64,000 bases of DNA, taken from the NCBI GenBank assembly GCA_910588435.1, contig CAJUPL010000001.1, forward strand, positions 45,309 through 109,308. Reading direction: 5' to 3'. Each line of letters starts with the position of its first letter. Within the stretch, counting starts at the first letter, position 1. This stretch comes from an uncultured Eggerthellaceae bacterium (GTDB lineage: Bacteria; Actinomycetota; Coriobacteriia; Coriobacteriales; Eggerthellaceae). Shown here piece after piece: positions 3,381 through 61,779 of the stretch. The translations under genes were made by a program, and so were the position numbers. A model generated the notes under the pieces. It was not told the DNA's origin, did not search any database, and saw only the letters and a list, made by a program, of their open reading frames with translations.

Positions 3381-3970
3381 GTATCTACAACGCGGCTGTC
3401 ATAGCAGCGCGTGAAGTAATCAAGGCCATCTTCTTGCGTGCCGATCAGGAAGGTGGCGCATGCATCTGCGGCAACCACTGTCTTATAAGTGCGGAAATAT
3501 GCACCAGCAAGCGTCTGAAGGACGCAGATGTTCGTATCGCATCCGCAGACTAGAAGCGTATCCACGCCTAGCTCTCTCAGCGTCAGATCAAGGTCTGTTT
3601 GGAAGAAGCCGTCATACCTGCGCTTGGGGATGATGAGGTCATCTTCTTGAGGCTCAAGCAGGCTCAACGGCTTAGCAGCTTCAGTGCCCCTGATCCCATG
3701 CTCTCCCCATAGCTCCAGCTCCCTGTCCAATCCGGGGATGTGAGCATCGCAGCTGAATATCACAGGGACGTTCGCATCATGTGCGGCTGAGACGATTCGC
3801 CTGCAATTCTCAGCCATATCTTCAAGGCCGGGAGTGGCTCCTTCGCTGCCTCCAAGGACATCCACCACCAATACAGCAGTCTTCGTCAGATCCACCTCGT
3901 TGGATCTCTGCCATTCGGTATCTTGTGCAACTGGTAGGTACGCCATATCCATTCCCTTCATCATCAGCAT
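3353..3970 (-). CDS. Isochorismatase-family cysteine hydrolase (nicotinamidase-like)
   Basis: Family-typical blocks are TAVLVVDV (Asp), IIPKRRYDGF (Lys) and LLVCGCDTNICV (nucleophile Cys). Several ATGs occur at the 5' end, so the start is uncertain. Confidence 0.8.
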   Translation of the reverse strand: MLMMKGMDMAYLPVAQDTEWQRSNEVDLTKTAVLVVDVLGGSEGATPGLEDMAENCRRIVSAAHDANVPVIFSCDAHIPGLDRELELWGEHGIRGTEAAKPLSLLEPQEDDLIIPKRRYDGFFQTDLDLTLRELGVDTLLVCGCDTNICVLQTLAGAYFRTYKTVVAADACATFLIGTQEDGLDYFTRCYDSRVVDTDVVLGYLS

Positions 3971-4071
3971 CGAAGCAACCCATTCTAAGGCAAGCGTACC
4001 CGGATGCCAGAAAATGGTCAGATTAGCTAGCCAGGAGCAGATCGTCTATCCAGGAATGACAGGCTGCCCTT

Positions 4072-4479
4072 TCAAAAAGAAGCGAGAAGATCTTGATCGT
4101 AGCTTGCCTCTAGGTCAGATATGAGCTTCTTGAAAGCTGGGATATATGCCCCCAGTATGCTGTTGACGATGCGAGTGGCTGCCTCTTCATCATAGACATG
4201 CTGGGCGGTATTCCTGTCATCTAGCATGGCAAGCCATGTGGCCTCGTCAATGAAGTCATAAGCAGCATATGCTGACTTGATGATGCCGCGAGGCGATCCA
4301 GTTGCAGCATCCATGCGGCCTTCATATCGAAGGGCTTTCTGAAGCAGCTTCCAAGCCAGCTCGAATTGCAGGGTGAATTTGTCGATGATGCCGCTCTTGA
4401 TGAATTCGTTCTCAAGGTCTTGCTGGGGCGCTTGTTGCAGGATCTGAAGGTTCGCCTTGTAGTTCTCGTACTTAGCCAT
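4072..4479 (-). CDS. hepT: HEPN-domain toxin, nucleotidyltransferase substrate-binding (HI0074) family
   Basis: 135 aa with the Rx4H HEPN motif in DDRNTAQHVYDE. It overlaps the upstream MNT gene by 8 nt. Confidence 0.8.
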   Translation of the reverse strand: MAKYENYKANLQILQQAPQQDLENEFIKSGIIDKFTLQFELAWKLLQKALRYEGRMDAATGSPRGIIKSAYAAYDFIDEATWLAMLDDRNTAQHVYDEEAATRIVNSILGAYIPAFKKLISDLEASYDQDLLASF

Positions 4480-4816: not shown

Positions 4817-4893
<77 letters not shown>

Positions 4894-18102: not shown

Positions 18103-18131
18103 GAAGCGGCGGCCATCTCGGCTGCCGCTTC
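18103..18131 (+). terminator. Stem-loop after the hydrogenase structural genes (terminator or processing site)
   Basis: gaagcggcggcc / ggctgccgcttc gives a 12-bp stem with one G-U, 27 nt after the stop. No U tract follows, so its function is uncertain. Confidence 0.4.
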
Positions 18132-18132
18132 T

Positions 18133-18201
18133 CATATATGACCCCCAAGGTCAATGACAGTTCCCCGTGCTTAATGTCATTGACCTTTCAGGTCATATAT
18201 G
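18133..18201. repeat. Nested palindrome element, copy 1
   Basis: The outer arms are catatatgacc / ggtcatatatg and the inner arms are ggtcaatgaca / tgtcattgacc, around the loop gttccccgtgcttaa. A 45-nt core recurs at 52626-52670. Confidence 0.6.
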
Positions 18202-24414: not shown

Positions 24415-24712
24415 TCCTCCTCAATAGCAGGCTGCTGCACCCCCCCCCTTGCGGGCGTCTCCATTGGAGACGCAGCATTGCCCCCTCCTCAATAGTGGGC
24501 GGCTGCATTGCAGCCGCAGTTGCACGCTAGTGCAACGTAACGCAGGCGATAGCCTGCGAACACCCGGCACCCAGCAACTGGTCAGGCAAGGTGGCCTGGC
24601 GCAGACCAACTATCCGGGTGTTTCGGGCTAACGCCCTCATTTCGCTGTGCTGTCGCACAGCTGCGTCGGCAATGCCGACACCCACTCTTAGGGGGACGCC
24701 CACTCTTAAAAA
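24415..24712 (+). repeat. Structured intergenic repeat, copy A1 (core 24495-24685) with extra end modules on both sides
   Basis: The core GTGGGCG..CACCCAC aligns along its length with copies at 30241, 52291, 55631 and 59152(-). An extra left module lies at 24451-24494 and an extra right remnant at 24697-24707. Confidence 0.8.
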
Positions 24713-24799: not shown

Positions 24800-24955
24800 G
24801 TGGGCGTCTCCATTGGAGACGCAGCATTGCCCCCTCTCCACCTGTGGGCGCTTGCATTGCAAGCGCAGCATTGCGATGAGCAATGCGTAACTTGCCCGAC
24901 AGGGCAAGAGCACCCGGAAGCTAGCAACTGGTCAGGAAAGATGGCCTGACGCAGC
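24800..24955 (+). repeat. Structured intergenic repeat, copy A2: one extra left module plus the 5' half of a core (from 24844)
   Basis: It matches the other copies through AGCAACTGGTCAGG..GCCTG and then diverges at about 24955. Confidence 0.7.
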
Positions 24956-25076
24956 ATCGCGATAGGCTGGATGATGGAGAGAATGTGAATTCGATAGGGG
25001 TGCCTGCCTGTGATCATATCGCTTGCTAGCTGTTACGATATCGTTGACCTTAAGTATGCGATCAAGGAGATGGCTC

Positions 25077-28787: not shown

Positions 28788-30131
28788 GTGGAGCGCGTGT
28801 TATCCATATCCATCATCTGCATCCTGGCAGTCTTGATGGTCTTGCAAGGCGGCTTCTTCTCGGAAGCCGCCTGCGCTGTTCTCATCAGTGCAGCCGTTGT
28901 GGCTGTGGTCATCCTCTGCTGGTGGTGGTTGGCGGGCAGAAGGTCTTCCAGCAAGCCATCAGGGGAACACAGCTCAAGCGACTGGAGCTCCATCTTGCGA
29001 ACGTGGTTCCCGCTCGTGTGCGCTCTGCTTATAGCGGCGCTATTCGCTGTCAGTTCTTTGGCTCACGGGCTTAGCGCTGAAAGCCTTCGGCAGTGCTCAC
29101 CTTGGCTGCTCGCTGCCATAGCGTCAGTTGGAGTGGTCATCTTAGGTTCGTCTGAGCGCATCTGGTTGCTCAAGGGCATCGCGTGGCTTGGCGTTGTGAG
29201 CGCAGTGGTAGGCATAGCCCTCTTCGCTGATATTCCTCATCTTGGAGGAACGGTGAGCGCTGGCAGGCTCAATTTCCTCTTCCAGTACGCGAATGCGGCT
29301 GGAGCGTGGTTCGCATGCGTGGCACTCATATGCATGCGGTTGCATGATGCTCGCCTCAGCAGGTGCTTGGCCCCATCTTTCGTGGCTTTGCTGCTCACAC
29401 AATCGGTGGGAGCCATCTTACTGTTCGGATGCATCATGTGTGTGTGCATCGCAAGGAAGGCTATCAGGGCAAAGGGCCCAGATGCATGGACGGAGCTTTG
29501 TGCCCTGTTGGTGCAGATCTTGATGGCAACTCTCGTATTTGCATGCTTCAGGATGAGCATCAGCATTGGCGTGATCGTATTCTTGGCAGTTTGGGTGTTG
29601 TTCTATGAGCTTTGGCCCAAGGCGTGCAAGCGCTTGATGGGCAAGGATGCGCCTCGTGTGGTCTTTTGGGTAGCCGCATGTATGATCGTGGCTGCCTTGG
29701 TGGCGCTTGCATTCGTGATGGCTCCTAGGCTGATGCAAGCTTCTGGTACGTTCGCTGAGAGGCTTGCTCAGATGAGGGATGCTTTCACATTGTTGGTACA
29801 AAATCCTGTGCTGGGGATAGGCCCTGATCAGTGGCAAGTTGTCTATCCTTCCATGCAGAGCGCAGAGTATCGCTCAGCCGTCGTTCATTCTGGGTACCTT
29901 CAATTGGGGTTGGATGCAGGGGTGCTGGCACCTCTGGCCTTGTTAGGCATGCTCGCGCATGCGTTGGTGCGTGGTGGCAATGTGGTGAAGCCTGCACTCT
30001 GGCTGCTTGCTCTGCATTCGCTCATTGACTTCGATCTTCGCTTTGCGTTCTTCGTCGTATTGATCTTCGTATTTGTCTCTGCTTCTGATCTCAGCGTGGA
30101 GGATGGCAACCAGTCAGGCAAGGTTGCCTGA
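28788..30131 (+). CDS. O-antigen ligase/polymerase-like (Wzy_C family) polytopic membrane protein
   Basis: At least 10 TM helices, with blocks typical of the family (FLFQYANAAGAWFA and VVHSGYLQLGLDAGVL). It has a GTG start 27 nt after the surface-protein stop. Confidence 0.7.
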   Translation: MERVLSISIICILAVLMVLQGGFFSEAACAVLISAAVVAVVILCWWWLAGRRSSSKPSGEHSSSDWSSILRTWFPLVCALLIAALFAVSSLAHGLSAESLRQCSPWLLAAIASVGVVILGSSERIWLLKGIAWLGVVSAVVGIALFADIPHLGGTVSAGRLNFLFQYANAAGAWFACVALICMRLHDARLSRCLAPSFVALLLTQSVGAILLFGCIMCVCIARKAIRAKGPDAWTELCALLVQILMATLVFACFRMSISIGVIVFLAVWVLFYELWPKACKRLMGKDAPRVVFWVAACMIVAALVALAFVMAPRLMQASGTFAERLAQMRDAFTLLVQNPVLGIGPDQWQVVYPSMQSAEYRSAVVHSGYLQLGLDAGVLAPLALLGMLAHALVRGGNVVKPALWLLALHSLIDFDLRFAFFVVLIFVFVSASDLSVEDGNQSGKVA

Positions 30132-30137
30132 CTCTGG

Positions 30138-30176
30138 ATCATCTATCCGGGCATTTCGGCCTACCGCCCACTCTTG
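30138..30176 (+). repeat. Internally deleted remnant of the structured repeat
   Basis: atctatccgggcatttcgg joins directly to ccgcccactctt. These are the 3' blocks of the element without the intervening hairpins. Confidence 0.5.
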
Positions 30177-30201
30177 CGGGGAGGTGGATGCCTCCCTACC
30201 T

Positions 30202-30447
30202 GTGGGCGCTTGCATTGTAAGCGCAGCATTGCGCCCCCTTGTGGGCGTCTCCATTGGAGACGCAGCATTGCGATGAGCAATGCGTAACTTGCCCGGCAGG
30301 GCAAGAACACCCGGAACAGAGCAACTGGTCAGGTAAGCTTGCCTGGCGCAGACCAGCCATCCGGGTGCTTCGGGCTAGCGCCCTCATTACGCTGCGCTAG
30401 CGCACAGCTGCGTTCGCAATGCGAACGCCCACTCTTGAGGGGGTGAC
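30202..30447 (+). repeat. Structured intergenic repeat, copy B (extra left module at 30202-30240, core 30241-30432)
   Basis: Full-length alignment to copies A1, C, D and E. It lies between convergent genes. Confidence 0.8.
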
Positions 30448-51314: not shown

Positions 51315-52229
51315 ATGGGTGAGATCAAAGGCGAGAGGCATGAACTGATGAAAGGCGGAAGGGGCTATCCTGAAGCGTTCATGCACATCCCTGATCCTCC
51401 TTCAAAGCTATACGTGATCGGGAACGTCAAAGCGCTCCGTGAAGGCCTTGCCATAGTCGGTTCCAGGAAGGCCACTCCCTATGGAAGGGGCTGTGCAAGG
51501 AGATTCGCAAGGCGTGCGGCCAAGAGGGGCATCGTCATCGTATCGGGTGGAGCCAGGGGTTGTGATGCTGAGGCGCATAAGGGCGCTCTTGCCGAGGGAG
51601 GGGAGACCGTCGTATTCATGGGCGGCGGCTGTGACAAGGTCTACCCTGCTGAGAATTGGCGGCTCTTCCAGGATGTGGTGGATGCAGGAGGCGCGCTTGC
51701 GTCCGAGCATCCCTGGGATGCAGCCCCTTTGCCATTCATGTTCCGCTTGCGTAACAGGCTGATAGCTGGCCTTGCGAAGGCAACGCTGATAGTGGAGGCT
51801 GGCATGCCTTCTGGTACATTCAGCACGGCTGATGAGGCTCTGTCTGCCAATAAGGAAGTCCTTGCGGTGCCGGGTTCCATCGAATGCTCTCAGTCAAAAG
51901 GCGCGAACAGGCTCATCTATCAAGGAGCTGTTCCTATAGTTGATGATGATACGTTCGATGATCAGCTCTTCTCCATATTCGGGCAACTCAAGCAGGAAGG
52001 GTCTTCTGAGGATTCAGATGCTGGCATCAGCCTGTTCGATAGGCGTCTCCTTGATGCGATAGCTGCACAGACCATGGGGATAGAGGAGATCAACTCCCTT
52101 GCCAAGAGATTCAGGTATGGCAATTGGAGTCCAGCGAAGACAAATCTCTGGATAGCTAGGATGGAATCAGCCGGAAGGATAGCCAAATACCCTGGCGGCC
52201 GCTACGGCGCCAACGTCCGAGATGTGTGA
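51315..52229 (+). CDS. dprA: DNA-processing protein DprA
   Basis: Rossmann-like DprA core with IVGSRKATPYG, VSGGARGCD and LVVEAGMPSGTFSTA. Confidence 0.9.
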   Translation: MGEIKGERHELMKGGRGYPEAFMHIPDPPSKLYVIGNVKALREGLAIVGSRKATPYGRGCARRFARRAAKRGIVIVSGGARGCDAEAHKGALAEGGETVVFMGGGCDKVYPAENWRLFQDVVDAGGALASEHPWDAAPLPFMFRLRNRLIAGLAKATLIVEAGMPSGTFSTADEALSANKEVLAVPGSIECSQSKGANRLIYQGAVPIVDDDTFDDQLFSIFGQLKQEGSSEDSDAGISLFDRRLLDAIAAQTMGIEEINSLAKRFRYGNWSPAKTNLWIARMESAGRIAKYPGGRYGANVRDV

Positions 52230-52261
52230 CCTAGCGCTGGATGTTCGTGGGGGATCGGCAT

Positions 52262-52603
52262 CACAAGCGTAGCATTGCCCCTCCCCAATAGTGGGCGCTT
52301 GCAATGCAAGCGCAGCATTGCGATGAGCAATGCGTAACTTGCCCGACAGGGCAAGAGCACCCGGCACCCAGCAACTGGTCAGGCAACCTAGCCTGGCGCA
52401 GACCATCTATCCGGGCATTTCGGGTTGTCACCCTCATTTCGCTACCTTCCCGCCCTTCGAGCTTGCAGGTAGCTGCGTTCGCAATGCGAACGCCCACACT
52501 TGGGGGGGGCACAGCTGCGGCTGCAATGCAGCCGCCCACTCTTAAAGGGTGAGGACATTTCGGGTTTGCAGGTAGCTGCAGCAAGCAATGCAAGCGCCCA
52601 CAG
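52262..52603 (+). repeat. Structured intergenic repeat, copy C (core 52291-52497) followed by two extra right-end modules (52511-52541 and 52569-52603)
   Basis: This is the best-preserved copy. All hairpins and linker blocks are readable, and the right-end unit AGCTGC..CGCCCAC occurs three times. Confidence 0.8.
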
Positions 52604-52625
52604 GAAAGGGTGTCCGCTCCTAATG

Positions 52626-52670
52626 ATGACCCCTCAGGTAAATGACATTTCCCCATGCTTAATGTCATTG
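52626..52670. repeat. Nested palindrome element, copy 2 (partial)
   Basis: atgacccctcaggtaaatgacatttccccatgcttaatgtcattg matches 18138-18182 at about 40 of 45 positions. The outer right arm is missing. Confidence 0.5.
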
Positions 52671-52703
52671 GACGCCCCCGTGTGGCCGCTGTCCATCCAG
52701 TAG

Positions 52704-52865
52704 TATGATGGCAAGACCTATGCCATCGACGACGTGAGGCGCCGCTACGCATTGGAGCCCTCACGCACGTACCTCCTCACGCTCTGCTTCGCGGAGGGCT
52801 GGGAGCTCAAGGACGGATACAGCTTCGACGTCGAGGCGACAGTCAGCTACCGCTGCGCCGAGTAG
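52704..52865 (+). pseudogene. 3' fragment of an unidentified gene (no start, truncated at the repeat boundary)
   Basis: The open frame YDGKTYAIDDVRRRYALEPSRTYLLTLCFAEGWELKDGYSFDVEATVSYRCAE ends at TAG 52863-52865. A stop lies immediately upstream and there is no start codon or SD. Confidence 0.35.
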
Positions 52866-52897
52866 TTACATTGGCAGGTTCACAATCGAGGTGAGAA

Positions 52898-53193
52898 GTG
52901 GTTGACGAAGATGATGTGGCGAGGTTGTTCGAGCTGCTCTTTGTGAAGGATAACAAGGTCGCATACGGGGCGTCGCAGGATCTTCAGAACTGAAGCAAGT
53001 AGAGGACGAGAAGCCCATTACGGCAAGACAGTGCATAAAGTTGCTTCCTGTTATTGCGGAGGCTAAGCCTGAATTGCGGGAAGACATTACCGGGGCGCTT
53101 TGAAACGCCAATGTCTGCATCTATGGCGAGAGCATGCGCCCGCTGATCTACAAGGACATCAAGGAAGCGCTGATCGAGATAGAGGAGCTTTAG
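52898..53193 (+). pseudogene. Disrupted small ORF (one frameshift and one in-frame TGA)
   Basis: A GTG with an SD gives MVDEDDVARLFELLFVKDNKVAYGASQDLQN then a stop. Coding-like sequence continues in the +1 frame (LKQVEDEKPITARQCIKLLPVIAEAKPELREDITGAL). After a TGA the same frame reads NANVCIYGESMRPLIYKDIKEALIEIEEL. Confidence 0.4.
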
Positions 53194-53286
53194 CAGCCTG
53201 CAGAAGGCAGCGCATCGCCGCAAGTGAGGCTTTCGTCGGCGACTACCTTAGCGCATCGCACATTGGTCATTTAGTCAGGAAAGAAG

Positions 53287-53766
53287 GTGAAGATGCAGTT
53301 CGGTTTCTCGGCAGTCGGATTGGTCATGCTCGCCATGCTGTTCGTGCCTAACATGATCTGGGGGAGAAGGCAGCCCCTCGGGTACAGCGAAATCGCAGAG
53401 CGCGAAAGCCCTGCACTCTGCATTTTCGAGCGTGTCGGCCAGGTCGCCGTCACGGCTTCAGCCCTAGCTTTCGTCTGCCCGGAGGGCTACGCCATGCCTT
53501 GGCTCTTGTGGCTCGCGCTGGCGTTCGTCCTGATGCTGCTCTACGAGGCTGCCTGGGTGCGCTACTTTAGAAGCGATGGGGGAGTACGGGACATGTATCG
53601 GCCTTTGGGCTTCATCCCTGTGCCCTTGGCGATGCTCCCGGTGGCGGCGTTCGTACTTCTGGGCATCTGGCAGCAGTCGCCGTTCACAGTTGCTGCCGCC
53701 ATAGTCCTTGGAGTCGGCCACATCGGCATACATCTCGGCCATCTCAAGGATTGCCGGAAAGCGTGA
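53287..53766 (+). CDS. Hypothetical membrane protein (four or five TM helices)
   Basis: 159-aa hydrophobic ORF with AAGGTGAAG upstream. I recognise no family. Confidence 0.5.
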   Translation: MKMQFGFSAVGLVMLAMLFVPNMIWGRRQPLGYSEIAERESPALCIFERVGQVAVTASALAFVCPEGYAMPWLLWLALAFVLMLLYEAAWVRYFRSDGGVRDMYRPLGFIPVPLAMLPVAAFVLLGIWQQSPFTVAAAIVLGVGHIGIHLGHLKDCRKA

Positions 53767-54271
53767 CGCCTTCGACGACCAGACACGGAATCTGCTCGTT
53801 GACGGGGGAGCCGTACTGCGCTCGGGGGATTTTATTCATCAGATAATTGACAAGGCGCTCCCCATCACGCGCGACGACGTTCTCGCTTGCGACCACATAG
53901 CCCATCGCTTCGAAGAACGGTTTCGCCGTAATCGACGCATGGGTCGAGACGCCGTCGGGCGCAAGCGCTTCAAGGGATCGGCACAGCGCGGTGCCGATAC
54001 CTTCCCCTTGGTGGTCCTTGTGCACGAAGAGCCTGTCGAGGTACCCGGTCGCGTCTATGTCACCGAACCCGATGATCCTGCCATCTTCCTCGGCGACCAG
54101 AGCGCCGTTGGCAAGCAACGAAGCGCTCCAAGCGTCAAGGTCGTCGCAGCCGGACACCCACGCGCACAGCTGGCCGGGCGTGTAGTCGTCCTTGCAAACC
54201 TCGCGGATGGTCTCGCGAAAGAGCTGCGCGGTTGCTTCGGCGTCATCGGGACTGTATGCGCGTATCAGCAT
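53744..54271 (-). CDS. GNAT-family N-acetyltransferase
   Basis: Motif A LDRLFVHKDHQGEGIGTALC. The likely start is MLIRAYSPDD at 54271, which overlaps the upstream gene end by 29 nt. Confidence 0.8.
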   Translation of the reverse strand: MLIRAYSPDDAEATAQLFRETIREVCKDDYTPGQLCAWVSGCDDLDAWSASLLANGALVAEEDGRIIGFGDIDATGYLDRLFVHKDHQGEGIGTALCRSLEALAPDGVSTHASITAKPFFEAMGYVVASENVVARDGERLVNYLMNKIPRAQYGSPVNEQIPCLVVEGVTLSGNP

Positions 54272-55133
54272 CGATGGTTCCCTTTGTCTCAAAGGGCGAT
54301 TGCAAGCTGTGGTCGAGGGTACTGCTGGGAGGAAGAGCAGGGATGAAAGCCTCGATGAGCTCGTTCACGTCATTGGGCTTGTCGGTGTTGGAGCTGTGAC
54401 CGGCTCCCTCGATCCAGTGGACCTTGATTCCCGTGCGCTTCTCCCATTCGCGGTTGTATTGTTTGGCGGTGCCGGCGGCATCATTCGTGCCGCAGATGAG
54501 AAGTGCGGGGCGGTCGATTCTATAAGGCCGGTCTGCCTCGACGGCTTGTGCGAGCGCACGGTATCCGTGGGCAGCAAGCTCGCAGTATTCGCGCTTGTCG
54601 TATCCCGCCATCATCTCACGCATGAGCTGCCGCCCGTACTCGCTGGTAGCGCAGCCTTCGGAACCCATTTTCACAAGAAGGCTCCACGGAATGGAGAGAT
54701 ACATCAGCTTGGTGTGCTTGAGCGCAGCCAGCTCCCATCCTGAGTAGTAGGCGCGCTGAAGGGGGCATGAGTCGATCGAGACGAACCCAGAGACGACGCC
54801 GGGGAAGAGATACATGAACGCCTGGGCGACGTACCCTCCCATCGACTGCCCGATGAGCACGGGCGAGTCTATGCCTTCGGTGTCGAGAATCTCCTTGAGC
54901 CAGCGAGCCTTGTCGTCCAGCTTCCAAGCAAGGGGGAAGGGGCGCGACTCGCCGTGCGAGGGGGCATCCCACGAAAGGATGTTCGCCCTGCCTTCGAAAT
55001 GCTCGACCTGCTTGGCGAAGAGCCGGTGGTCGGCGGTCAGTCCCGGTAGGAAGACGAGCCATGGCGCGCCGTCGCCCGCCTCGCGAGACGTCCAGTAGGC
55101 GATTCCTTTGTAGTTGTTTGGTCGGAGCATCAT
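54243..55133 (-). CDS. Alpha/beta-fold hydrolase
   Basis: HG oxyanion region LVFLPGLTADHRLF, nucleophile elbow LIGQSMGGYVAQ and C-terminal GAGHSSN. Confidence 0.8.
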   Translation of the reverse strand: MMLRPNNYKGIAYWTSREAGDGAPWLVFLPGLTADHRLFAKQVEHFEGRANILSWDAPSHGESRPFPLAWKLDDKARWLKEILDTEGIDSPVLIGQSMGGYVAQAFMYLFPGVVSGFVSIDSCPLQRAYYSGWELAALKHTKLMYLSIPWSLLVKMGSEGCATSEYGRQLMREMMAGYDKREYCELAAHGYRALAQAVEADRPYRIDRPALLICGTNDAAGTAKQYNREWEKRTGIKVHWIEGAGHSSNTDKPNDVNELIEAFIPALPPSSTLDHSLQSPFETKGTIDADTRIQSR

Positions 55134-55298
55134 GTCCTCCCTGCAGCATTACCTTTGAATCCATTATCTCACGCTATGCAAGGCGGCAGTAGTGATGATG
55201 TATTGCATGAACCGACACCCCACCCTCGAAAACGACACCCCAAGCCAAAAAGGGGTGTCGTTTTGTATCGTCAGCGTCGATTGGTGGAGAAAGGCTTA

Positions 55299-55328
55299 CG
55301 GCCCGCAATTCTGCGGGCCGCTTCTTTT
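55299..55328 (+). terminator. Orphan terminator-like hairpin
   Basis: cggcccgca-attc-tgcgggccg followed by cttctttt. No convincing plus-strand gene lies upstream. Confidence 0.35.
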
Positions 55329-55331
55329 ATA

Positions 55332-55379
55332 AAGGCCGCTACTCATGAGCATGCAAGCATGCTCATGAGTAGCGGCCTT
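55332..55379. repeat. Perfect 48-nt palindrome (23-bp arms, 2-nt centre)
   Basis: aaggccgctactcatgagcatgc-aa-gcatgctcatgagtagcggcctt, verified base by base. Confidence 0.75.
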
Positions 55380-55630
55380 GGCGCACTCACGTGCGCCTGA
55401 TCCGGGTGGTCACGCAGGCCTGCTCATGCGCGCTCCCGCTTGCCAATGGGCGGCAAGGCACGAATACGGTGCCTTGCCCTACGTCCACCAGAAACATCCT
55501 CATGTCCAATAACGCCACCAACAAGAGAGGTCTATCAGGTTGACGTAGGGCACGCCACCGATCTTGTGGCGTGCCGCAACGCAGCAACACGGACTGCTGG
55601 CGTGCGCAACTCAGCCCCAATCCCTAACCT

Positions 55631-55838
55631 GTGGGCGGCTGCATTGCAGCCGCAGCATTGCGCCAGCAATGCGTAACGCAGGCGATGAGCCTGCGAACAC
55701 CCGGATGCTAGCAACTGGTCAGGTAACCTAGCCTGGCGCAGACCACCTATCCGGGCATTTCGGATTATCACCCTCATTTCGCTACCTTCTCGCCCTTCGG
55801 GCTTGCAGATAGCTGCCACAAGCAATGCGAACGCCCAC
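55631..55838 (+). repeat. Structured intergenic repeat, copy D
   Basis: Full-length alignment to the other copies. It combines the hairpin-2 variant of B/C with the hairpin-3 variant of A1/E, and its right-end module is degenerate. Confidence 0.8.
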
Positions 55839-55864
55839 AATAAGAGCCGAATCCAAGCAGCTGG

Positions 55865-56083
55865 TCAGTAGGAGATGGTGATCAGCTGGCATTCGCGGCA
55901 GATATCAGCTGCGAATGCCGTGCGGCCACCTATCTTTGGAGAGGTCAGCTCAACGAAGCCTGGAGCGTGTCGGGCATTCTCAAAGGAGCTTGGCACTTCG
56001 TCCGCAAAGCTTAATGCCCCATCTTTCGTGCTGAAGATGTACCCCGGTTCAAGCTCTTGCCCGCATTTGTGGCACTTTGTCAT
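55865..56083 (-). CDS. Small zinc-ribbon protein
   Basis: 72 aa with CxxC at both ends (CHKCG and CRECQ). It is the last gene of a three-gene minus-strand module. Confidence 0.55.
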   Translation of the reverse strand: MTKCHKCGQELEPGYIFSTKDGALSFADEVPSSFENARHAPGFVELTSPKIGGRTAFAADICRECQLITISY

Positions 56084-56092
56084 GATTGGCGC

Positions 56093-56278
56093 CTAGCCTT
56101 TCTGAAACACAAGGGTGATGATGAGGGTCTTGCCTGTGGGCCCGAACTTTGTTGGTACGAAGCCGCTGTAGGTGAAGCCCTTCTCGGCGTACTTGGTTAT
56201 GACCGGCTTGAAACCGTTCAACTCGGCGTTCCAGGCTGGGTTGTTCTCGAGATCCATGGTGACGAACTCGGTTTGCAT
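56093..56278 (-). CDS. Small protein, DUF4177-like
   Basis: The 61-aa protein MQTEFVTMDL..ITKYAEKGFTYSGFVPTKFGPTGKTLIITLVFQK resembles the DUF4177 pattern. Its start lies 1 nt after the upstream stop. The ORF track extends to 56317. Confidence 0.45.
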   Translation of the reverse strand: MQTEFVTMDLENNPAWNAELNGFKPVITKYAEKGFTYSGFVPTKFGPTGKTLIITLVFQKG

Positions 56279-56279
56279 G

Positions 56280-56741
56280 TCAGATCCTTTCGTCGGCAGC
56301 ATTTGCGATGGAAGCATTGACCGCGCGTCCGAACATCTTCAGCATGGCTTCGGCGTCTTCAAGGCGCTGAAGTGCTATGCCCTGGGATTCATCACCCAAG
56401 ATGAGCAGCTCATCCCCGCTTTCCAAGCCGAACACCTCACGAGCCTTCTTCGGGATGACGATCTGCCCGCGCTCTCCTATCTTTGCGATGCCGAAGATAT
56501 GCAACCCGGCTGGCGGGATAGGGTACCCGGCGCGTTCTTCGGAATGGTTCACCAGGTCATCCAGGCGCACTTTGAACAGTCGTGAAAGCGCTTGAGCGTT
56601 CACTAGGTCTGGTACCGCCTCACCGGATTCCCACTTTGCAACTGTCTGACGAGATACGCCCAAGCGCTCAGCTAGCGCTTCTTGGGTGAGCGATCCTTGT
56701 GTACGCAATGTCTGTATGTTTTGAGCGATCATCCTTTTCAT
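56280..56741 (-). CDS. XRE-family HTH regulator fused to a SpoVT/AbrB-like domain
   Basis: HTH LTQEALAERLGVSRQTVAKWESGEAVPD and a C-terminal swapped-hairpin-like IAKIGERGQIVIPKKAREVFGLESGDELLIL. The start is at 56741 or 56732. Confidence 0.8.
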   Translation of the reverse strand: MKRMIAQNIQTLRTQGSLTQEALAERLGVSRQTVAKWESGEAVPDLVNAQALSRLFKVRLDDLVNHSEERAGYPIPPAGLHIFGIAKIGERGQIVIPKKAREVFGLESGDELLILGDESQGIALQRLEDAEAMLKMFGRAVNASIANAADERI

Positions 56742-57047
56742 GCCTCCGATGAGATCATAGAGCGCTATATCGGTGAATGCTATCAACTAGGCGCGTCATC
56801 TTCCGGATGGAAATGTAACCCATAGTTGGCATGGGCGCGACTGAGCAATCCGAGCTACAGATAATCGTTTTGCAGATGATGGCCTCGCTGAGCAATAAGG
56901 GCAGATAAGGCGATCGGAAGGGATTGGCCGGGATCAGATCGTCACTGAGTCAAAAAGGGCTACGATCAAATAATGACCCTTGCGAACGACTCCGGTGTTG
57001 ATATCAGTGTTAGATTTATGGCGAGAACATGATAGTAGCTAGCGGTT

Positions 57048-57791
57048 GTGAAAAAGGGCATGAAGCCGAAAGAGCTATTGGAAGGAAGAAGGGGTGAAGG
57101 AGTGGGGCTAAGAAGACTGACAGATAAGATTTACTATCTTCCCCACGACCCGGAGCTTGACAGACCGATGCTGGCTTATGTGAAAGGTGATAAGTATGCC
57201 TTAGCTATCGATGCGGGGTATTCGGCATCCCATGTGAGAAGCTTTTATGCGGCATTGAGGGCTTGCAATTTCGGAGAACCTGATTTCACGGTGATCACGC
57301 ACTGGCACTATGACCATACCTTTGGATTGTGTGCCGCAGAAGGCGTCAGCATCGCACATCAGAAAACAAACCTCTTCCTAAGGGAGCAGAAGGTTAAGGC
57401 TCAAGGTAGAGGCTATGTTGATGATTTAAAAGAGAGTGATGCTCACTTTGCAAAAGAATATACAGGACGGAACGAAGTGAGTATCGTGTTGGCTGACCTC
57501 GAATTCTCGAATGAGATCATATTGAATTTGGGAAATCTAACGGCTCGAGTTTTCCATACCGATTCGCCCCATTCAGAAGATACAACTTGCGTTCTCATTC
57601 CAGAAGAAGGAGTTCTCTTCTTGGGTGACTCTACAAGCGAGGATTTCTTCAATGGCGGCTATATGGACAAAGCAAAGCTGAATCGTCTGATCCTTACAAT
57701 TCGCTCTATAGATTGCAAGTACTGTGCGCTTAGTCATTGCGAACCTCTGGAAAAGGATGAGCTGCTTGCGTACTTGGATAGCATTGGATGA
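57048..57791 (+). CDS. MBL-fold metallo-hydrolase
   Basis: HxHxDH motif in VITHWHYDHTFG, plus a later His (VFHTDSPHSEDT) and Asp (LFLGDS). Local GC is visibly lower than in the flanks. Confidence 0.8.
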   Translation: MKKGMKPKELLEGRRGEGVGLRRLTDKIYYLPHDPELDRPMLAYVKGDKYALAIDAGYSASHVRSFYAALRACNFGEPDFTVITHWHYDHTFGLCAAEGVSIAHQKTNLFLREQKVKAQGRGYVDDLKESDAHFAKEYTGRNEVSIVLADLEFSNEIILNLGNLTARVFHTDSPHSEDTTCVLIPEEGVLFLGDSTSEDFFNGGYMDKAKLNRLILTIRSIDCKYCALSHCEPLEKDELLAYLDSIG

Positions 57792-57890
57792 TTGCTGAAG
57801 TTGCCTTAGCGGGGTAGAGGAACCGTAGAGGCGTCGGTCGGCTTCCGTTGCATGAAATAGCCTCATCGCTAATTGTCGTTGGAGGAAACT

Positions 57891-58343
57891 ATGGGTGAAT
57901 TGAGGTATATAGATATCAGAGAAGACCCGCAGCTTGCAGAGGATGCGGCTGCTTGGTTCCATTCGAAGTGGGAAGTTCCCGAGGAAGAATACCTTTCTTG
58001 CATCACAGCATACCTCAACCACGAAAACGAGCTCGGATGGTTCCTTTGCTTGGACGACGATGATGTTGTTGGCGGACTTGGGGTGATAGAGAACGATTTC
58101 CACGACAGGAAGGATCTCGCTCCCAATATCTGCGCGGTTTATACCGAAGTGAGCTATCGGGGGGAGGGCATTGCTGGACGTTTGTTGGACGCCGCCGTTG
58201 TTAATTTGAGAGCAGAGGGCATCTCGCCGGTGTATCTGGTCACTGAGCTAACCGGTTTCTATGAGAGATACGGATGGGAATTTCTCTGCATGGTGCAGGA
58301 TGAGAGCGGACTCGGTTTGCTGAGAATGTACGTACATGAATAG
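57891..58343 (+). CDS. GNAT-family N-acetyltransferase
   Basis: Motif A VYTEVSYRGEGIAGRLLDAAV. The ATG is 5 nt after GGAGG. Confidence 0.75.
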   Translation: MGELRYIDIREDPQLAEDAAAWFHSKWEVPEEEYLSCITAYLNHENELGWFLCLDDDDVVGGLGVIENDFHDRKDLAPNICAVYTEVSYRGEGIAGRLLDAAVVNLRAEGISPVYLVTELTGFYERYGWEFLCMVQDESGLGLLRMYVHE

Positions 58344-58450
58344 TCCGTCTCGATCGAATGAGCTGCTCTGGAGTGCGCAATCGGCGTTATTGGGTCTGAA
58401 CTATCTCGATTCGCAAATTGCAGGGCAATCGAAGTCAGGCGTTTCTGCCG

Positions 58451-59086
58451 TCATGCTTTCCTCACTGGATGGCGGATGACAGTCTTCAATTTCTCCGGCT
58501 TGCAGCGGCGAGGGTCGGAGAGGTAGATCTCGTGGTGGAGGCGCTTGCTGCTGAAGTCGGGGACGTATCCCTGACTCTCAGCGAAGTCGTGCATCTTCGC
58601 AACGGTTGAGGGTTCGCTGTCGTATGGGCCGACATGCATGCACTGCACGCAAAGGCCCTCGTTCATGGGCATGAACTCCACCTTCGAGAAATCCTGCTCC
58701 TTCTTCACGGTGGCCTCAGATATGGCCCATTCGAAGTCTTCCCTTGTGACGAAGTCAGGTAGGCGGATGCACGATATGAAGCGCAAGTCTTCCTTGCGCG
58801 AGCAGCCGATCTTGTTCGTTGCGCCTTCTTGCCACCAGAAGCCCTCAAGCGGTGGCACTACGTAATCGAAGTAGCCTTCTATCCGGTGGTCACCCTTCTT
58901 CGACATCTTGATGGTGAAGGCGACGGCGTACAGAAGCCCGATGGACTGCTTATACTCACCGCCTTCGATGGTGGGATCACCCGAGCCAAGGACGACAATG
59001 TAATTCATGGGCGGCACATCAACGATGGTCGGCTTCTTGGGAGGGGAGTAGAATTCCTTGTATTCCCGTTTGTAGTCGAACGCCAT
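58451..59086 (-). CDS. GyrI-like small-molecule-binding domain protein
   Basis: 211 aa. The N-terminus FDYKREYKEFYSPPKKPTIVDVPPMNYIVV and the duplicated beta-alpha-beta-beta layout are typical of GyrI-like/effector-binding proteins. Confidence 0.65.
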   Translation of the reverse strand: MAFDYKREYKEFYSPPKKPTIVDVPPMNYIVVLGSGDPTIEGGEYKQSIGLLYAVAFTIKMSKKGDHRIEGYFDYVVPPLEGFWWQEGATNKIGCSRKEDLRFISCIRLPDFVTREDFEWAISEATVKKEQDFSKVEFMPMNEGLCVQCMHVGPYDSEPSTVAKMHDFAESQGYVPDFSSKRLHHEIYLSDPRRCKPEKLKTVIRHPVRKA

Positions 59087-59151
59087 GAGCAGTCCGCCCT
59101 TCTATTGATATCGCATTAATTATCTCACGCTGCAGACGCATCCCCTTATCT

Positions 59152-59344
59152 GTGGACGTTCGCATTGCTTGCCGCAGCTGTGTGCTATCACAGCGTGATG
59201 AGGGTGATAACTCGAAATACCCGGATACTTGGCCTGCGACAGGTTGGGTTGTCTAACCAGTTGCTTTGTTCCAGGTATTCGCAGGCTCATCGCCTGCGTT
59301 ATGTTGCACTGGCGTGCAACTGCGCTTGCAATGCAAACGCCCAC
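59152..59344 (-). repeat. Structured intergenic repeat, copy E (inverted orientation)
   Basis: The reverse complement aligns along its full length to copies A1-D. It is the most diverged copy and carries compensated changes in the long-range stem. Confidence 0.8.
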
Positions 59345-59410
59345 AAGAAATGAGGAGTAGAACATGGACCGGGGCGCGTCAGTGCCTCAAGGCCGCTACG
59401 GCAGCTGTGC

Positions 59411-59962
59411 TCACAGAGCGTATTCAAGCTGGCAGTCGAGGGGCTGTGACGTCACGTGCTGCTTGTTCGGCTCTGCAGCATCTACGCACCCAAGCGAGCG
59501 GTAGAACCCTTGTGTCTCAACAGCGGAATGCGATGATATGTACAGCTTCTTCGCACCTTGACCCTTCGCCCACTTAGCAGCTTTGCCGAATAGCTTCTTT
59601 CCGATGCCTTTTCCGCGCATGTCCTCTGATACATGTAGGGAAGTCAGATCCAGATAGCGGTTCTCTCCTCCGAAGAAGGCGCTCTCCACTGACGCGAACC
59701 CCTTGAGCTCTCCGTTCGAAAAGGCTCCAAGCACGAATCCGCCAGTGGAGATGGTATTCCGAAGACAATCTACGAGCACATGGAGATCCTCGTCTGACCA
59801 ATCATCAATGAAGGGATCGGGGCGAATGTCCCAGGCATCCCCTTCTCGGCGATAGCAGAGATTCACTTCCTGATGCCGTATGAAGCTACGGAACAGGTCA
59901 CGATCGATCCGGTCATATGAGAGCGTTTGGCATTCGATCACAGGGCCTCCTTCATCTAACAT
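59411..59962 (-). CDS. GNAT-family N-acetyltransferase
   Basis: Motif A LHVSEDMRGKGIGKKLFGKAAKWAK. Confidence 0.8.
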   Translation of the reverse strand: MLDEGGPVIECQTLSYDRIDRDLFRSFIRHQEVNLCYRREGDAWDIRPDPFIDDWSDEDLHVLVDCLRNTISTGGFVLGAFSNGELKGFASVESAFFGGENRYLDLTSLHVSEDMRGKGIGKKLFGKAAKWAKGQGAKKLYISSHSAVETQGFYRSLGCVDAAEPNKQHVTSQPLDCQLEYAL

Positions 59963-60309
59963 GGTGCTTATACTAGAGCAAGACGATATGGATCAGAGAT
60001 ATATCCAAGGGAGCATTGCACGATGGCGGATCTACCCACAAATGATGATAGCGAAGCGCCTGAAGACCTTGCAAGATCGTCTGTGATAGGCAAGTCACGC
60101 ACTATGAGCAATGGAAGTCTGAGAGATAGGTGAATCCGCTTCTTCTTCCACGAATATCGTCACGCTGAGCTGGGGATGCAACCGACGGTTGACAAGGATT
60201 GCAAACCTTAGTTGGTGGTGCGCATGATCAGCGTAGATGATAATCGCCAGCGTTCTGCTCTCCAAATGCTGAGAGCTTCGAATTCGAATGATGAGAGAGG
60301 TTTCGATCG

Positions 60310-60840
60310 ATGAGCGATATCAGCGACCGCCTTGCCAAGCTGAGGCGGGATAACGGATTGAATCAGGAGGAGCTGGCTGAGAAGCTGGGCGTTTCTAGGC
60401 AGGCTATCTCAAAGTGGGAGAGGGGTGAGTCCGCTCCGGATCTGAGCAATCTCATCGCCTTGTCAGATCTCTTCGACGTGAGCATCGACTACCTTGCCAA
60501 GGGGAAGGAAGAGGAGGATGCGGCTCCCAAAGAAGAGGAAGAGCTACGTGCTCCTGATCCTGAGAGCATCGTCTACCCAGATGTTGACGATGTGCAGATG
60601 CCTTCAAGCAGTGTGCATTCGGCAGGGCAAGAGGGACGAAGGCGCAGTCCTTGGGCCACGTTCCCATACCCCATTGCTGTAGTGCTGCTCTACTTGCTGA
60701 TAGGGTTCGCCTTCGGTGGGTGGCATCCTTGGTGGCTGTTGTTCCTCACCATTCCGGTCTACTACTGGATCGTCCAGGTTGTCATCCATGACCCGGAATA
60801 CATCAAGGATCACCCGCAATACAAGAGCAGCCAGAGGTGA
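60310..60840 (+). CDS. XRE-family HTH protein with C-terminal transmembrane segment pair
   Basis: HTH LNQEELAEKLGVSRQAISKWERGESAPD, an acidic linker, then two TM helices (WATFPYPIAVVLLYLLIGFAFGGWHPWWLLFLTIPVYYWIV). Confidence 0.75.
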   Translation: MSDISDRLAKLRRDNGLNQEELAEKLGVSRQAISKWERGESAPDLSNLIALSDLFDVSIDYLAKGKEEEDAAPKEEEELRAPDPESIVYPDVDDVQMPSSSVHSAGQEGRRRSPWATFPYPIAVVLLYLLIGFAFGGWHPWWLLFLTIPVYYWIVQVVIHDPEYIKDHPQYKSSQR

Positions 60841-60846
60841 TAGCGC

Positions 60847-61755
60847 ATGAACCTGACGACAGAGAGCAAGAAGAAGATCTTGGCGATCATCGCGGGAACG
60901 ATCGTCGTTTGCATATTGCTTGCAGCGGTGACGACGCCAGGCTGCATGGGGGAGGCGCAGATGGAAGAGAAGACACAGCGCATAGAAGCTGCAGGAGTGA
61001 AGAGCTTGAGCATAGACTTCCCTGTAGGGAAGATGAAGGTGCATGAAGCCGAGCAAGGTGAGAGGAATGTGGTCATCACTGAGCGTGCATCTGGCAATCT
61101 GACAAGGAAGGCTCAGATGGCATGCGATGTTGAAGATGGGACCTTGCGCGTGAGGTTCAAGATGAATCCGCTTGCATGGCTTCCCTTCAATTGGTTCGGG
61201 TCTGGCAACAGAGAGCTGGATATAGCCGTGCCAGCTGAGATACTGAGCTCACTAGATGGTTTCGAACTCCACTGCTCTGCCGGGAAGTCTGAAGTGGAGA
61301 GCTTGAGATGCAAGGCCGCGAACGTGAGCGTATCAGCCGGAGACGTCGTGCTAAATGGCTTGGATGTTGAGGATCATAGCGAACTCAAGCTATCTGCCGG
61401 AAGCTTGAGGATCACAGATGCTAGATTGGGGACATGCAAGCTTGAAGAATCAGCTGGTAAGGTTGATCTGAGCGGAGATATGAGATCGCTCAGCCTCAAG
61501 ACCTCAGCTGGTCAGGCCGTCGTAGAATGCACGAACTCCGATGTGAGCCAGATCGATGTTGGCCTCTCTGCCGGGGACGTCGAACTCATTCTCCCGAATG
61601 ATGCCGGATTCGATGCGGCGGTTGACAAGACGGCAGGCAGCTTCAACTGCCTGTTCGATGCTGAGATACGAGGTGAGACCTACCGGCATGCTGACGGAGA
61701 TATCCCGATAGACATCCACATCACTGCTGGCAGCGTTACGCTAAGGCCCATATAG
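60847..61755 (+). CDS. DUF4097-like beta-helix protein with N-terminal membrane anchor
   Basis: TM helix ILAIIAGTIVVCILLAAV followed by repeated SAG/SAGD-containing strands (VSAGDVVL, LSAGSLRI, ESAGKVDL, TSAGQAVV, LSAGDVEL, TAGSVTL). Confidence 0.6.
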   Translation: MNLTTESKKKILAIIAGTIVVCILLAAVTTPGCMGEAQMEEKTQRIEAAGVKSLSIDFPVGKMKVHEAEQGERNVVITERASGNLTRKAQMACDVEDGTLRVRFKMNPLAWLPFNWFGSGNRELDIAVPAEILSSLDGFELHCSAGKSEVESLRCKAANVSVSAGDVVLNGLDVEDHSELKLSAGSLRITDARLGTCKLEESAGKVDLSGDMRSLSLKTSAGQAVVECTNSDVSQIDVGLSAGDVELILPNDAGFDAAVDKTAGSFNCLFDAEIRGETYRHADGDIPIDIHITAGSVTLRPI

Positions 61756-61779
61756 CTATAGTTTGGTAAGCTAGGCGGC

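Follow-up and report, generated by a model that had tools for sequence, protein, structure and literature searches.

Here, we describe a structured, non-coding repeat unit of 190–208 nt in the genome of an uncultured mouse-gut Eggerthellaceae species. A 64-kb stretch of this genome (the window) holds five full and three partial copies, one of which lies in an interval flagged by an earlier note (52262–52603). We lean toward reading the unit as a lineage-specific mosaic repeat of the kind represented by repetitive extragenic palindromic (REP) sequences, bacterial interspersed mosaic elements (BIMEs), and REPINs: two tagged hairpin bricks that face each other, tags outside, with a ~140-nt spacer between them that is itself a string of hairpins. 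Around this dimer, further bricks are stacked together with half copies and modules of other repeats. Two kinds of explanation had been put forward in the earlier note, an uncharacterized non-coding RNA (ncRNA) family and a BIME/REPIN-like module. We find that the second fits much better, given the tagged REP-type ends, the solo and tandem end modules, the reassortment of hairpins, the truncated and nested copies, and the assemblies that break inside copies.

Besides the window, our analysis covers about 33 kb from elsewhere in this species (loci L088, L121, and L145), which makes about 97 kb in all. The species is known from metagenome-assembled genomes (MAGs) alone, e.g., GCA_948791395.1 and GCA_022797915.1.

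Anatomy of the end module and the repeat unit

The ends of the unit are formed by a 25-nt module, GTGG-GCGnnnnC-ATT-GnnnnCGC-AG, with an 8-bp stem, a 3-nt loop, and an unpaired 5′ GTGG tag. Allowing one mismatch at most, we count 14 instances of the pattern GTGGGCG-N13-CGCAG in the window (0.38 expected by chance), of which 13 are true modules. The end repeats had been described with a gap of 12 or 13 nt; the ends are confirmed, and the gap is invariably 13, the N12 version giving chance matches alone in the window. The module table for the window, L088, and L121 contains 21 modules, and there are about 24 in the ~97 kb, each extragenic or at the end of an open reading frame (ORF). Most carry the tag GTGG; two carry GTAG (L088 935 and L145 ~2397) and one carries GCGG. 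In about 16 of 19 modules, the tag is preceded at a distance of 2–7 nt by a run of at least three Cs.

The inner 4 bp of the stem vary freely provided that they pair; the ATT loop is fixed, and an AG tail follows on the 3′ side. Every real module retains complementarity at 4–5 of 5 variable stem pairs. We detect at least seven stem alleles, almost all with perfect complementarity (GCTGC, TCTCC, CTTGC, TTTGC, TTCGC, TCGGC, and, outside the window, CTTCC), the first three of which agree with the hairpin 1 variants listed in the earlier note. Several alleles are only 1–2 positions apart, with each change compensated on the opposite arm. Variation of the REP hairpin across these alleles, in single compensated steps, is thus genuine covariation. 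All six alleles that we tested fold as single-stranded DNA (ssDNA) into one hairpin shape that leaves GTGG unpaired at the 5′ end and AG at the 3′ end (−9 to −10.9 kcal/mol, z −4.2 to −6.4).

Modules also stand alone, in 39–44-nt head-to-tail arrays, and in inverted pairs; eight head-to-head dimers are present in addition to the tandem arrays. Three stand-alone modules precede full or half copies in the window:

24451–24475, plus strand: stand-alone module, tag GCGG, allele TCTCC, 44 nt upstream of copy A1
24800–24824, plus strand: stand-alone module, allele TCTCC, 44 nt upstream of copy A2
30202–30226, plus strand: stand-alone module CTTGC/GTAAG with one G·T, 39 nt upstream of copy B

The five full copies noted earlier were all recovered where they had been placed, by nhmmer (E values of 1e-54 to 1e-58) and by a covariance model (185–221 bits), with a mean column identity among copies of 76–81%. 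A 5′ half copy and a deleted remnant also proved real, and their limits are redrawn here. The count of seven loci, all intergenic, needs two corrections: there is an eighth fragment at 3970–4077, and the remnant at 30090–30191 overlaps the final ~40 nt (3′ end) of a Wzy-like ORF. The copies in the window, together with the nearest one outside it, are as follows:

3970–4077, plus strand: degenerate core fragment, model positions 61–136 (nhmmer E 1.6e-7; covariance-model match 3997–4054, E 0.002)
24495–24685, plus strand: copy A1, full, downstream of gltX (nhmmer and covariance model)
24844–24966, plus strand: copy A2, 5′ half, ending after the central hairpin (nhmmer)
30090–30191, plus strand: degenerate internal remnant, model positions about 72–144, core at 30137–30169
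30241–30432, plus strand: copy B, full, between convergent Wzy-like and Lit genes
52291–52497, plus strand: copy C, full, downstream of dprA
55631–55838, plus strand: copy D, full, with a shared ~270-nt module X (55362–55630) directly before it
59152–59344, minus strand: copy E, full, the most diverged, between GNAT and GyrI-like genes
L145 2439–2609: copy J, 8 kb left of the window start, downstream of rnhA, truncated at CCCTCAT

Five further copies are found in the about 33 kb outside the window. L088 (16 kb) carries four of them (G, H, F, and I) and L145 carries one (J), which has a new hairpin 1 allele, CTTCC/GGAAG, and is preceded by a GTAG-tagged module. We had considered L088 as a second species; this was dropped because another contig of its assembly has an identical GyrI-like protein and the same gene order, which places L088 in the same species. 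The total of eight full or near-full and five partial copies in about 97 kb amounts to about one full copy per 12 kb. By extrapolation, a genome of a few Mb would hold on the order of a couple hundred copies. Some copies are halves or internal remnants, and some adjoin members of other repeat families. Furthermore, short-read contigs repeatedly break off inside the element, which explains the fragmentation of this species' short-read MAGs every ~10 kb.

The flagged interval sits just past the stop codon of dprA (51315–52229, Pfam DNA_processg_A). It had been presented as copy C, and a complete ~207-nt copy C is indeed there; debris of other units lies beside it. Its parts, given by direct reading for the flanking pieces, are:

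52262–52280, plus strand: truncated 3′ half of a left-type REP module (AAGCGTAGCATTGC)
up to 52290, plus strand: C-rich tract and short spacer (CCCCTCCCCAATA) before copy C
52291–52315, plus strand: left REP-like module of copy C, tag GTGG, 8-bp stem GCGCTTGC/GCAAGCGC, loop AAT, 3′ tail AG (pattern search, module table, DNA folding of six alleles)
52316–52472, plus strand: structured core, or "spacer" (RNAalifold, single-sequence folds, covariance model R1, pair counts)
52315–52333, plus strand: hairpin 2
52338–52355, plus strand: hairpin 3
52360–52365 with 52410–52415, plus strand: long-range helix CCCGG/CCGGG
52375–52401, plus strand: central hairpin
52422–52433, plus strand: GGGT/ACCC hairpin
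52441–52473, plus strand: hairpin 7, long form
52473–52497, minus strand: right REP-like module, GTGGGCG-TTCGC-ATT-GCGAA-CGCAG, inverted relative to the left module
52498–52512: G-rich tract (ACTTGGGGGGGG) mirroring the left C-rich tract
52515–52539, minus strand: solo REP module with allele GCTGC, forming a tandem with the right-hand end of copy C
52553–52603, plus strand: 3′ remnant of another copy, ATTTCGGGTT joined to TGCAGGTAGCTGC, nhmmer model positions 144–191, closing with a degenerate right REP that ends in CGCCCAC

The arrangement ...CGCAGCATTGC-CCCCTCC-N4–6 also precedes other copies, and the symmetry of C-rich and G-rich flanks is present in every copy.

Compensatory change and exchange of hairpins

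Between its end modules, the unit has a ~140-nt core for which RNAalifold and single-sequence folds give about six further helices: hairpin 2, hairpin 3, a long-range CCCGG/CCGGG helix that encloses a 10-bp central hairpin, a 4-bp hairpin, and hairpin 7, which is short or long depending on the copy. The consensus fold contains 59 pairs (z about −6). Pairing was counted in a model-guided alignment of eight sense copies (465 pair cells, 500 shuffles). Standard pairs fill 93.5% of the cells, compared with 83.5% in shuffled alignments and 28–36% when pairing partners are slid. Both sides have changed in 21 of the 59 pairs, and none of the 500 shuffles reached the observed pairing values. Variable columns are about equally frequent among paired (62 of 118) and unpaired (41 of 73) positions. 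Changes in stems are thus tolerated only if compensated.

All reading frames of the element carry stops, and copy lengths differ by non-multiples of three. Together with the pairing statistics and the 21 double changes, this bears out the proposal that the constraint acts on a folded nucleic acid and not on a protein.

The compensated changes are of two sorts. For hairpins 2, 3, and 7, the copies show just two versions apiece, with no inner position in common, which looks like a swap of ready-made hairpins and not stepwise covariation. This agrees in part with a caveat in the earlier note, that apparent covariation might reflect no more than two clonal subfamilies: it applies to these three two-allele hairpins and fails for the REP hairpin, with its seven or more compensated alleles. 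The alleles themselves are as reported earlier, GCATTGC or GTTGCAC for hairpin 2 and CTTGCCC or CGCAGGC for hairpin 3, and so is the replacement of GGGC/GCCC by GGGT/ACCC. The change of the long-range pair CACCCGG/CCGGGTG in copy E holds in part: one position is a true double change (C:G to U:A), and the other is a G·U wobble. Helices 5 and 6 show no double changes in the eight-copy alignment.

Allele tables across copies uphold the independent assortment of stem variants. Hairpins 2 and 3 are seen in the combinations 2a3a, 2a3b, and 2b3b, hairpin 7 is short or long, and hairpin 1 has seven alleles. Nearly all combinations of alleles occur, so copies exchange segments, and this reassortment points to exchange between copies at the level of DNA.

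Conserved unpaired blocks intersperse the variable stems. In the earlier note, a set of blocks had been described as invariant in copies A1 to D. Most of that description stands, with the exceptions that AACACCCGG reads AGCACCCGG in copy C and TATCCGGG reads CATCCGGG in copy B; elsewhere in the genome, the block AGCAACTGGTCAGG is replaced in three copies.

Distribution and genomic setting

We find the element in one uncultured mouse-gut Eggerthellaceae species only, as far as sequence searches can tell. Two interior and two end exact patterns were scanned against 185,579 GTDB representative genomes, where the sole true match is a 46-nt stretch at the very end of a contig of MAG MGBC165261; the same scan returned one chance match in a Saccharospirillum gene and 35 further chance matches. 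Two exact-pattern scans of JGI metagenomes found nothing, and two of IMG/VR gave chance matches alone. BLAST gave no match to the element in PLSDB (72,556 plasmids) or GenBank phages. As a query, the minus-frame ORF of copy C found its own orthologue and locus L088 and nothing else, and a chimeric six-frame query of 1,634 aa found no match.

The element is also absent from the corresponding sites of relatives, namely from 80 Coriobacteriia gltX loci and, among the nearest relatives (proteins about 65% identical), from nine dprA loci. Orthologous sites in relatives are compact and without the element. They support a gain, and at ~65% identity they give no empty-site footprint. Within the reading that we favor by a small measure, a recent lineage-specific gain of the element would account for this pattern.

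Copies sit at points where an insertion or an inversion sets this species apart from its relatives. The gap between dprA and trmFO is 8 bp in relatives, compared with a 9.5-kb accessory island here (52230–61779) that contains copies C, D, and E. In relatives, gltX comes immediately after Lit; in this species gltX has the opposite orientation, and copies A1, A2, and B lie at the junction. The element thus marks sites of acquired or inverted chromosome segments. The tightly packed housekeeping operons at 30.5–52 kb contain no copy.

The island encodes three GNATs, an alpha/beta hydrolase, an HTH-MazE protein, an MBL-fold protein, a GyrI-like protein, an HTH protein, and a DUF4097 protein. Comparison with nine related genomes shows that, in the segment 22791–31379, gltX is inverted relative to Lit, an ATP-grasp gene, and Mfd. 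At the gltX/Lit junction, the genes for a 1227-aa WG-repeat protein and a Wzy-like protein are inserted, bracketed by copies in direct orientation. One contig that carries dprA (JARCCX010063448.1 of GCA_029782595.1) is full of near-perfect tandem duplications of 141–311 bp that inflate gene lengths (DprA 501 aa, ComM 652 aa); these are almost certainly an assembly artifact.

Other repeat families share the genome with the element. A second tagged-hairpin family combines a constant, canonical GTAG-type tag, GTAGCGGCCTT, with a variable GC-rich hairpin, e.g., GGCGCAC-TCAC-GTGCGCC or GGTGGCC-TTCC-GGCCACC, and is usually found on the 5′ side of the large element, 12–190 nt beyond a stop codon. Two of its tags stand tail to tail in a 48-nt perfect palindrome at 55331–55380 (AAGGCCGCTACTCATGAGCATGC-TT-GCATGCTCATGAGTAGCGGCCTT), which yields spurious miRNA-precursor matches in Rfam E-value mode. 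A third family is a long palindrome, ATGACC..GGTCAATGACA-(13–15 nt)-TGTCATTGACC..GGTCAT, that has the look of an operator or of a further mobile module; in L145 it runs straight into a truncated copy of the main element. Module X, of ~270 nt, has three hairpins (GGCAAGGCAC/GTGCCTTGCC, CCTACGTC..GACGTAGG, and GGCACGCCAC/GTGGCGTGCC). It precedes copies D, F, and G, and some copies are therefore part of a ~480-nt composite unit. The positions are:

Second family: window 55369–55397 (plus), 55342–55314 (minus), and 59399–59366 (minus); L088 437, 987, 9902, and 10527 (all minus)
Third family: window 18130–18200 and 52626–52670; L088 9811–9890; L121 4582–4637; L145 2588–2632
Module X: window 55362–55630; L088 272–442 and 9583–9779; L145 2640–2860

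Origin of the element and comparison with known systems

GTAG-tagged REPs are stem-loops, with stems of 5–13 bp and loops of 2–20 nt, that occur as singletons, inverted dimers, or clusters; in some families the tag degenerates to GTRG or GTGG, and the spacers of head-to-head dimers are conserved, some with small stem-loops (PMC3733652). At 25 nt, with an 8-bp stem and a 3-nt loop, the end module lies within the range of a GTAG-type REP stem-loop (20–40 nt in total) as defined by Di Nocera et al. 2013, Nunvar 2010, and Ton-Hoang 2012. It has the unpaired tag in its degenerate form, and it forms inverted dimers and clusters, with a spacer of about 140 nt though, versus 20–100 bp. REP dimers (REPINs, BIMEs) are thought to be mobilized on ssDNA by REP-associated tyrosine transposases (RAYT, or TnpA-REP), which recognize the hairpin and the tag (PMC3116915; PMC3333891; PMC6006769). 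For a group-3 TnpA-REP in vitro, a change from GTAG to GTGG moves cleavage from CT/CA to CC (PMC8266576), and the C-run beside the GTGG tag would fit this rule. By analogy, the element is a candidate, and not a proven, member of a REP-RAYT system.

Such a system might work as follows. Hairpins would extrude in ssDNA, for example in the lagging-strand template, where a trans-acting HUH/Y1 enzyme of RAYT (TnpA-REP) type would recognize the hairpin shape and the GTGG tag. It would cut at the CC of the neighboring C-run, with units copied or moved as a result. The hairpin modules would be reshuffled whenever copies recombine or undergo gene conversion with one another. Selection for a cleavable hairpin would keep stems complementary, because only foldable hairpins would be substrates. 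Quasi-palindromes tend to be "corrected" via template switching in replication, and such "repair" probably helps to maintain complementarity. Units inserted just past stop codons are probably co-transcribed into 3′ untranslated regions (UTRs). There, the stems could secondarily serve as mRNA-end stabilizers or barriers, as those of enterobacterial REPs do.

If this reading is correct, REP/BIME-type tagged repeats, known to date chiefly from Proteobacteria, Cyanobacteria, and a small number of further phyla, extend to a gut lineage of Actinomycetota. They would do so in an unusually elaborate version, with a long, conserved, multi-hairpin spacer and freely reassorting modules. The GTGG tag with its upstream C-run would then be a natural counterpart of the guide rule seen in vitro (GTAG to CT, GTGG to CC).

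Several observations weigh against this reading. Pfam searches and gene tables of the window and of the ~33 kb from other loci reveal neither a Y1/RAYT gene nor a transposase of any kind. The phyla listed for tagged REPs in a 2013 survey exclude Actinobacteria (PMC3733652). At 140 nt, the spacer exceeds the 20–100 bp reported for REP dimers, and it has far more structure than the spacers there. Pairwise identity between copies is 66–87%; near-identical pairs are absent, so no recent burst is visible. Nor did we find a presence/absence polymorphism or an empty site, because the available conspecific MAGs are 99.9–100% identical at these loci. The right arm of the central hairpin, CCTGGCGCAGACC, is kept even where its pairing partner, the left arm, has diverged or been replaced, and this conservation of core blocks without a partner hints at a function beyond hairpin formation. 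Finally, copies D, E, and G have in common a right-hand REP with a broken stem, which indicates that an intact right hairpin is not strictly required for persistence.

An unlikely alternative, yet the one that survives best, is that the element is a multi-copy structured ncRNA or a cis-acting 3′-UTR RNA element. The ~200-nt fold would be the functional product, acting for example as an mRNA stabilizer, a processing site, or a protein sponge, and the REP-like ends would merely close the structure or have aided its spread. The strength of the consensus fold is in keeping with this, as are the conserved unpaired blocks between variable stems and a conserved U·G at one central pair in six of eight copies. 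The element is also sense to the upstream gene in seven of the eight intergenic regions with a full or half copy, the repeat block starting 12–190 nt past the upstream stop codon. However, the 7:1 sense bias falls short of significance (two-sided binomial p about 0.07), and it cannot be told apart from an effect of replication direction, given that GC skew marks the plus strand as leading.

Strand-specific evidence also fails to favor an RNA. Selection on one RNA strand would be expected to leave more G·U than A·C intermediates. Mismatch cells comprise 14 of G·U type and 15 of A·C type, 6 of the 14 coming from a single column; this balance means that an RNA strand cannot be assigned. In six of seven copies, the reverse strand folds equally well or slightly better. 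Thus, the structural constraint is real, with no link to RNA of one particular strand. Simple scans of the copies and their surroundings detected neither a sigma-70-type promoter nor an intrinsic terminator, so that none of the marks of an independent ncRNA gene (promoter, terminator, strand-specific constraint) was found. The helices that lack double changes, the two-allele swaps that make up most of the "covariation" of hairpins 2, 3, and 7, and the existence of truncated copies and of end modules on their own or in arrays, which an RNA gene would not be expected to show, all argue in the same direction. The ncRNA family suggested in the earlier note is thus unsupported.

Rfam searches agree. 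At the gathering threshold, the whole window yields a tRNA alone (4820–4893, minus strand), and in E-value mode (E ≤ 10) four copies with their flanks gave chance miRNA-like or whalefall-1 matches far below threshold. A Clostridiales-1 match of 30 bits was discarded: it was gone once the search boundary no longer clipped it. As the earlier note had allowed, the element is uncatalogued, and Collinsella-1, HEARO, IS605-orfB, group II intron, ribozyme, and all other families stay at noise level.

A combined reading, which we consider quite unlikely, takes the 140-nt core as a functional structured RNA (or ssDNA) cargo spread by a REP-type vehicle behind dozens to hundreds of genes of this one Actinomycetota species. 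The core could be a 3′-UTR module that tunes mRNA decay or termination genome-wide, or else a scaffold or guide for the hairpin-cutting enzyme itself. If so, it would represent a new class, an ncRNA-carrying REPIN, and the first REP/RAYT-like system described in Coriobacteriia.

Improbable, in our view, is an ordinary miniature inverted-repeat transposable element (MITE), that is, an internally deleted derivative of a DDE-transposase insertion sequence (IS) mobilized via 25–45-bp terminal inverted repeats. The unit does have terminal inverted repeats, which reach into the C-rich and G-rich flanks, and the ~200-nt size, high copy number, intergenic location, truncated copies, and contig breaks fit. 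Yet none of the eight copies is flanked by direct repeats, the flanks being inverted and exact boundaries undefined without an empty site. The terminal module also occurs solo and head to tail, which DDE transposition does not produce, and the termini are themselves perfect hairpins with a GTAG-like tag. Moreover, the about 97 kb contain no parent IS or transposase, and the 72,556 IS-rich plasmids show no similarity.

Very improbable is a non-mobile host DNA element, a reiterated binding platform or cruciform site for a nucleoid protein, topoisomerase, or recombinase that was spread by segmental duplication only and kept for chromosome organization. The sequence blocks conserved independently of pairing, the strand symmetry of the constraint, and the position of copies at junctions of inserted or inverted segments would suit such a platform, and enterobacterial BIMEs bind IHF, gyrase, and Pol I (PMC6006769). 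Against it, copies in at least nine unrelated intergenic regions with different flanks are hard to explain without a transposition-like process, truncated and nested copies suggest decay and not maintenance, and no candidate binding protein is known.

Other identities were rejected: an integron attC array (genes in mixed orientation, copies amid housekeeping genes, no integrase), an IS200/IS605 PATE or omega-RNA (ends are true inverted repeats, no Rfam match), a retron, bridge RNA, or group II intron remnant (no adjoining enzyme gene, no Rfam match), and a Xer/dif-like module (3-nt loop, versus a 6–8-nt spacer).

The favored reading, a head-to-head REP dimer within a BIME-like mosaic, can be set against known systems. 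RNA motifs from gut metagenomes such as Collinsella-1 are likewise multi-copy, structured, and intergenic in Coriobacteriia hosts; in contrast, no Rfam model truly matches the element even at E ≤ 10, in four copies with their flanks. Neisseria Correia elements, ERIC, RUP, BOX, and bcr1 are also non-coding, about 100–200 nt long, and built with inverted ends and long hairpins; these elements reach hundreds of copies, are co-transcribed with neighboring genes, and form intergenic mosaics with other repeats. However, Correia and RUP elements have target-site duplications and IS-like termini, neither of which was found here, and BOX consists of tandem A-B-C modules without REP-type tags.

BIMEs of Escherichia coli have a similar plan: they too are mosaics in which REP hairpins, each in a set orientation, alternate with conserved non-REP motifs, and they too lie just downstream of genes. 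Their functions include binding of IHF, gyrase, and Pol I and mRNA stabilization. There is no sequence relationship, E. coli REP stems are bulged, and the extra motifs there are short (10–30 nt) linkers.

The closest likeness is to GTAG-tagged REPs and REPINs (Pseudomonas GTAG-1, Stenotrophomonas SMAG), which share perfect short hairpins with an unpaired 5′ GT(A/G)G tag, singletons, tags-outside inverted dimers and clusters, several stem alleles per genome, extragenic location and, as far as the ~97 kb show, abundance, and conserved dimer spacers that may bear small stem-loops (PMC3733652, PMC3116915). Unlike these, the element has a spacer of about 140 nt with about six helices, compared with 20–100 bp; head-to-tail arrays are common here and rare elsewhere; no RAYT is seen in the DNA examined; and the host belongs to Actinomycetota (Coriobacteriia), a phylum outside the list of the 2013 survey. 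The element is of a familiar kind, a lineage-specific REP/BIME-like intergenic mosaic such as are common, and not a new kind of system. What is new is the host phylum, the size and structure of the spacer, and the modular exchange of hairpins.

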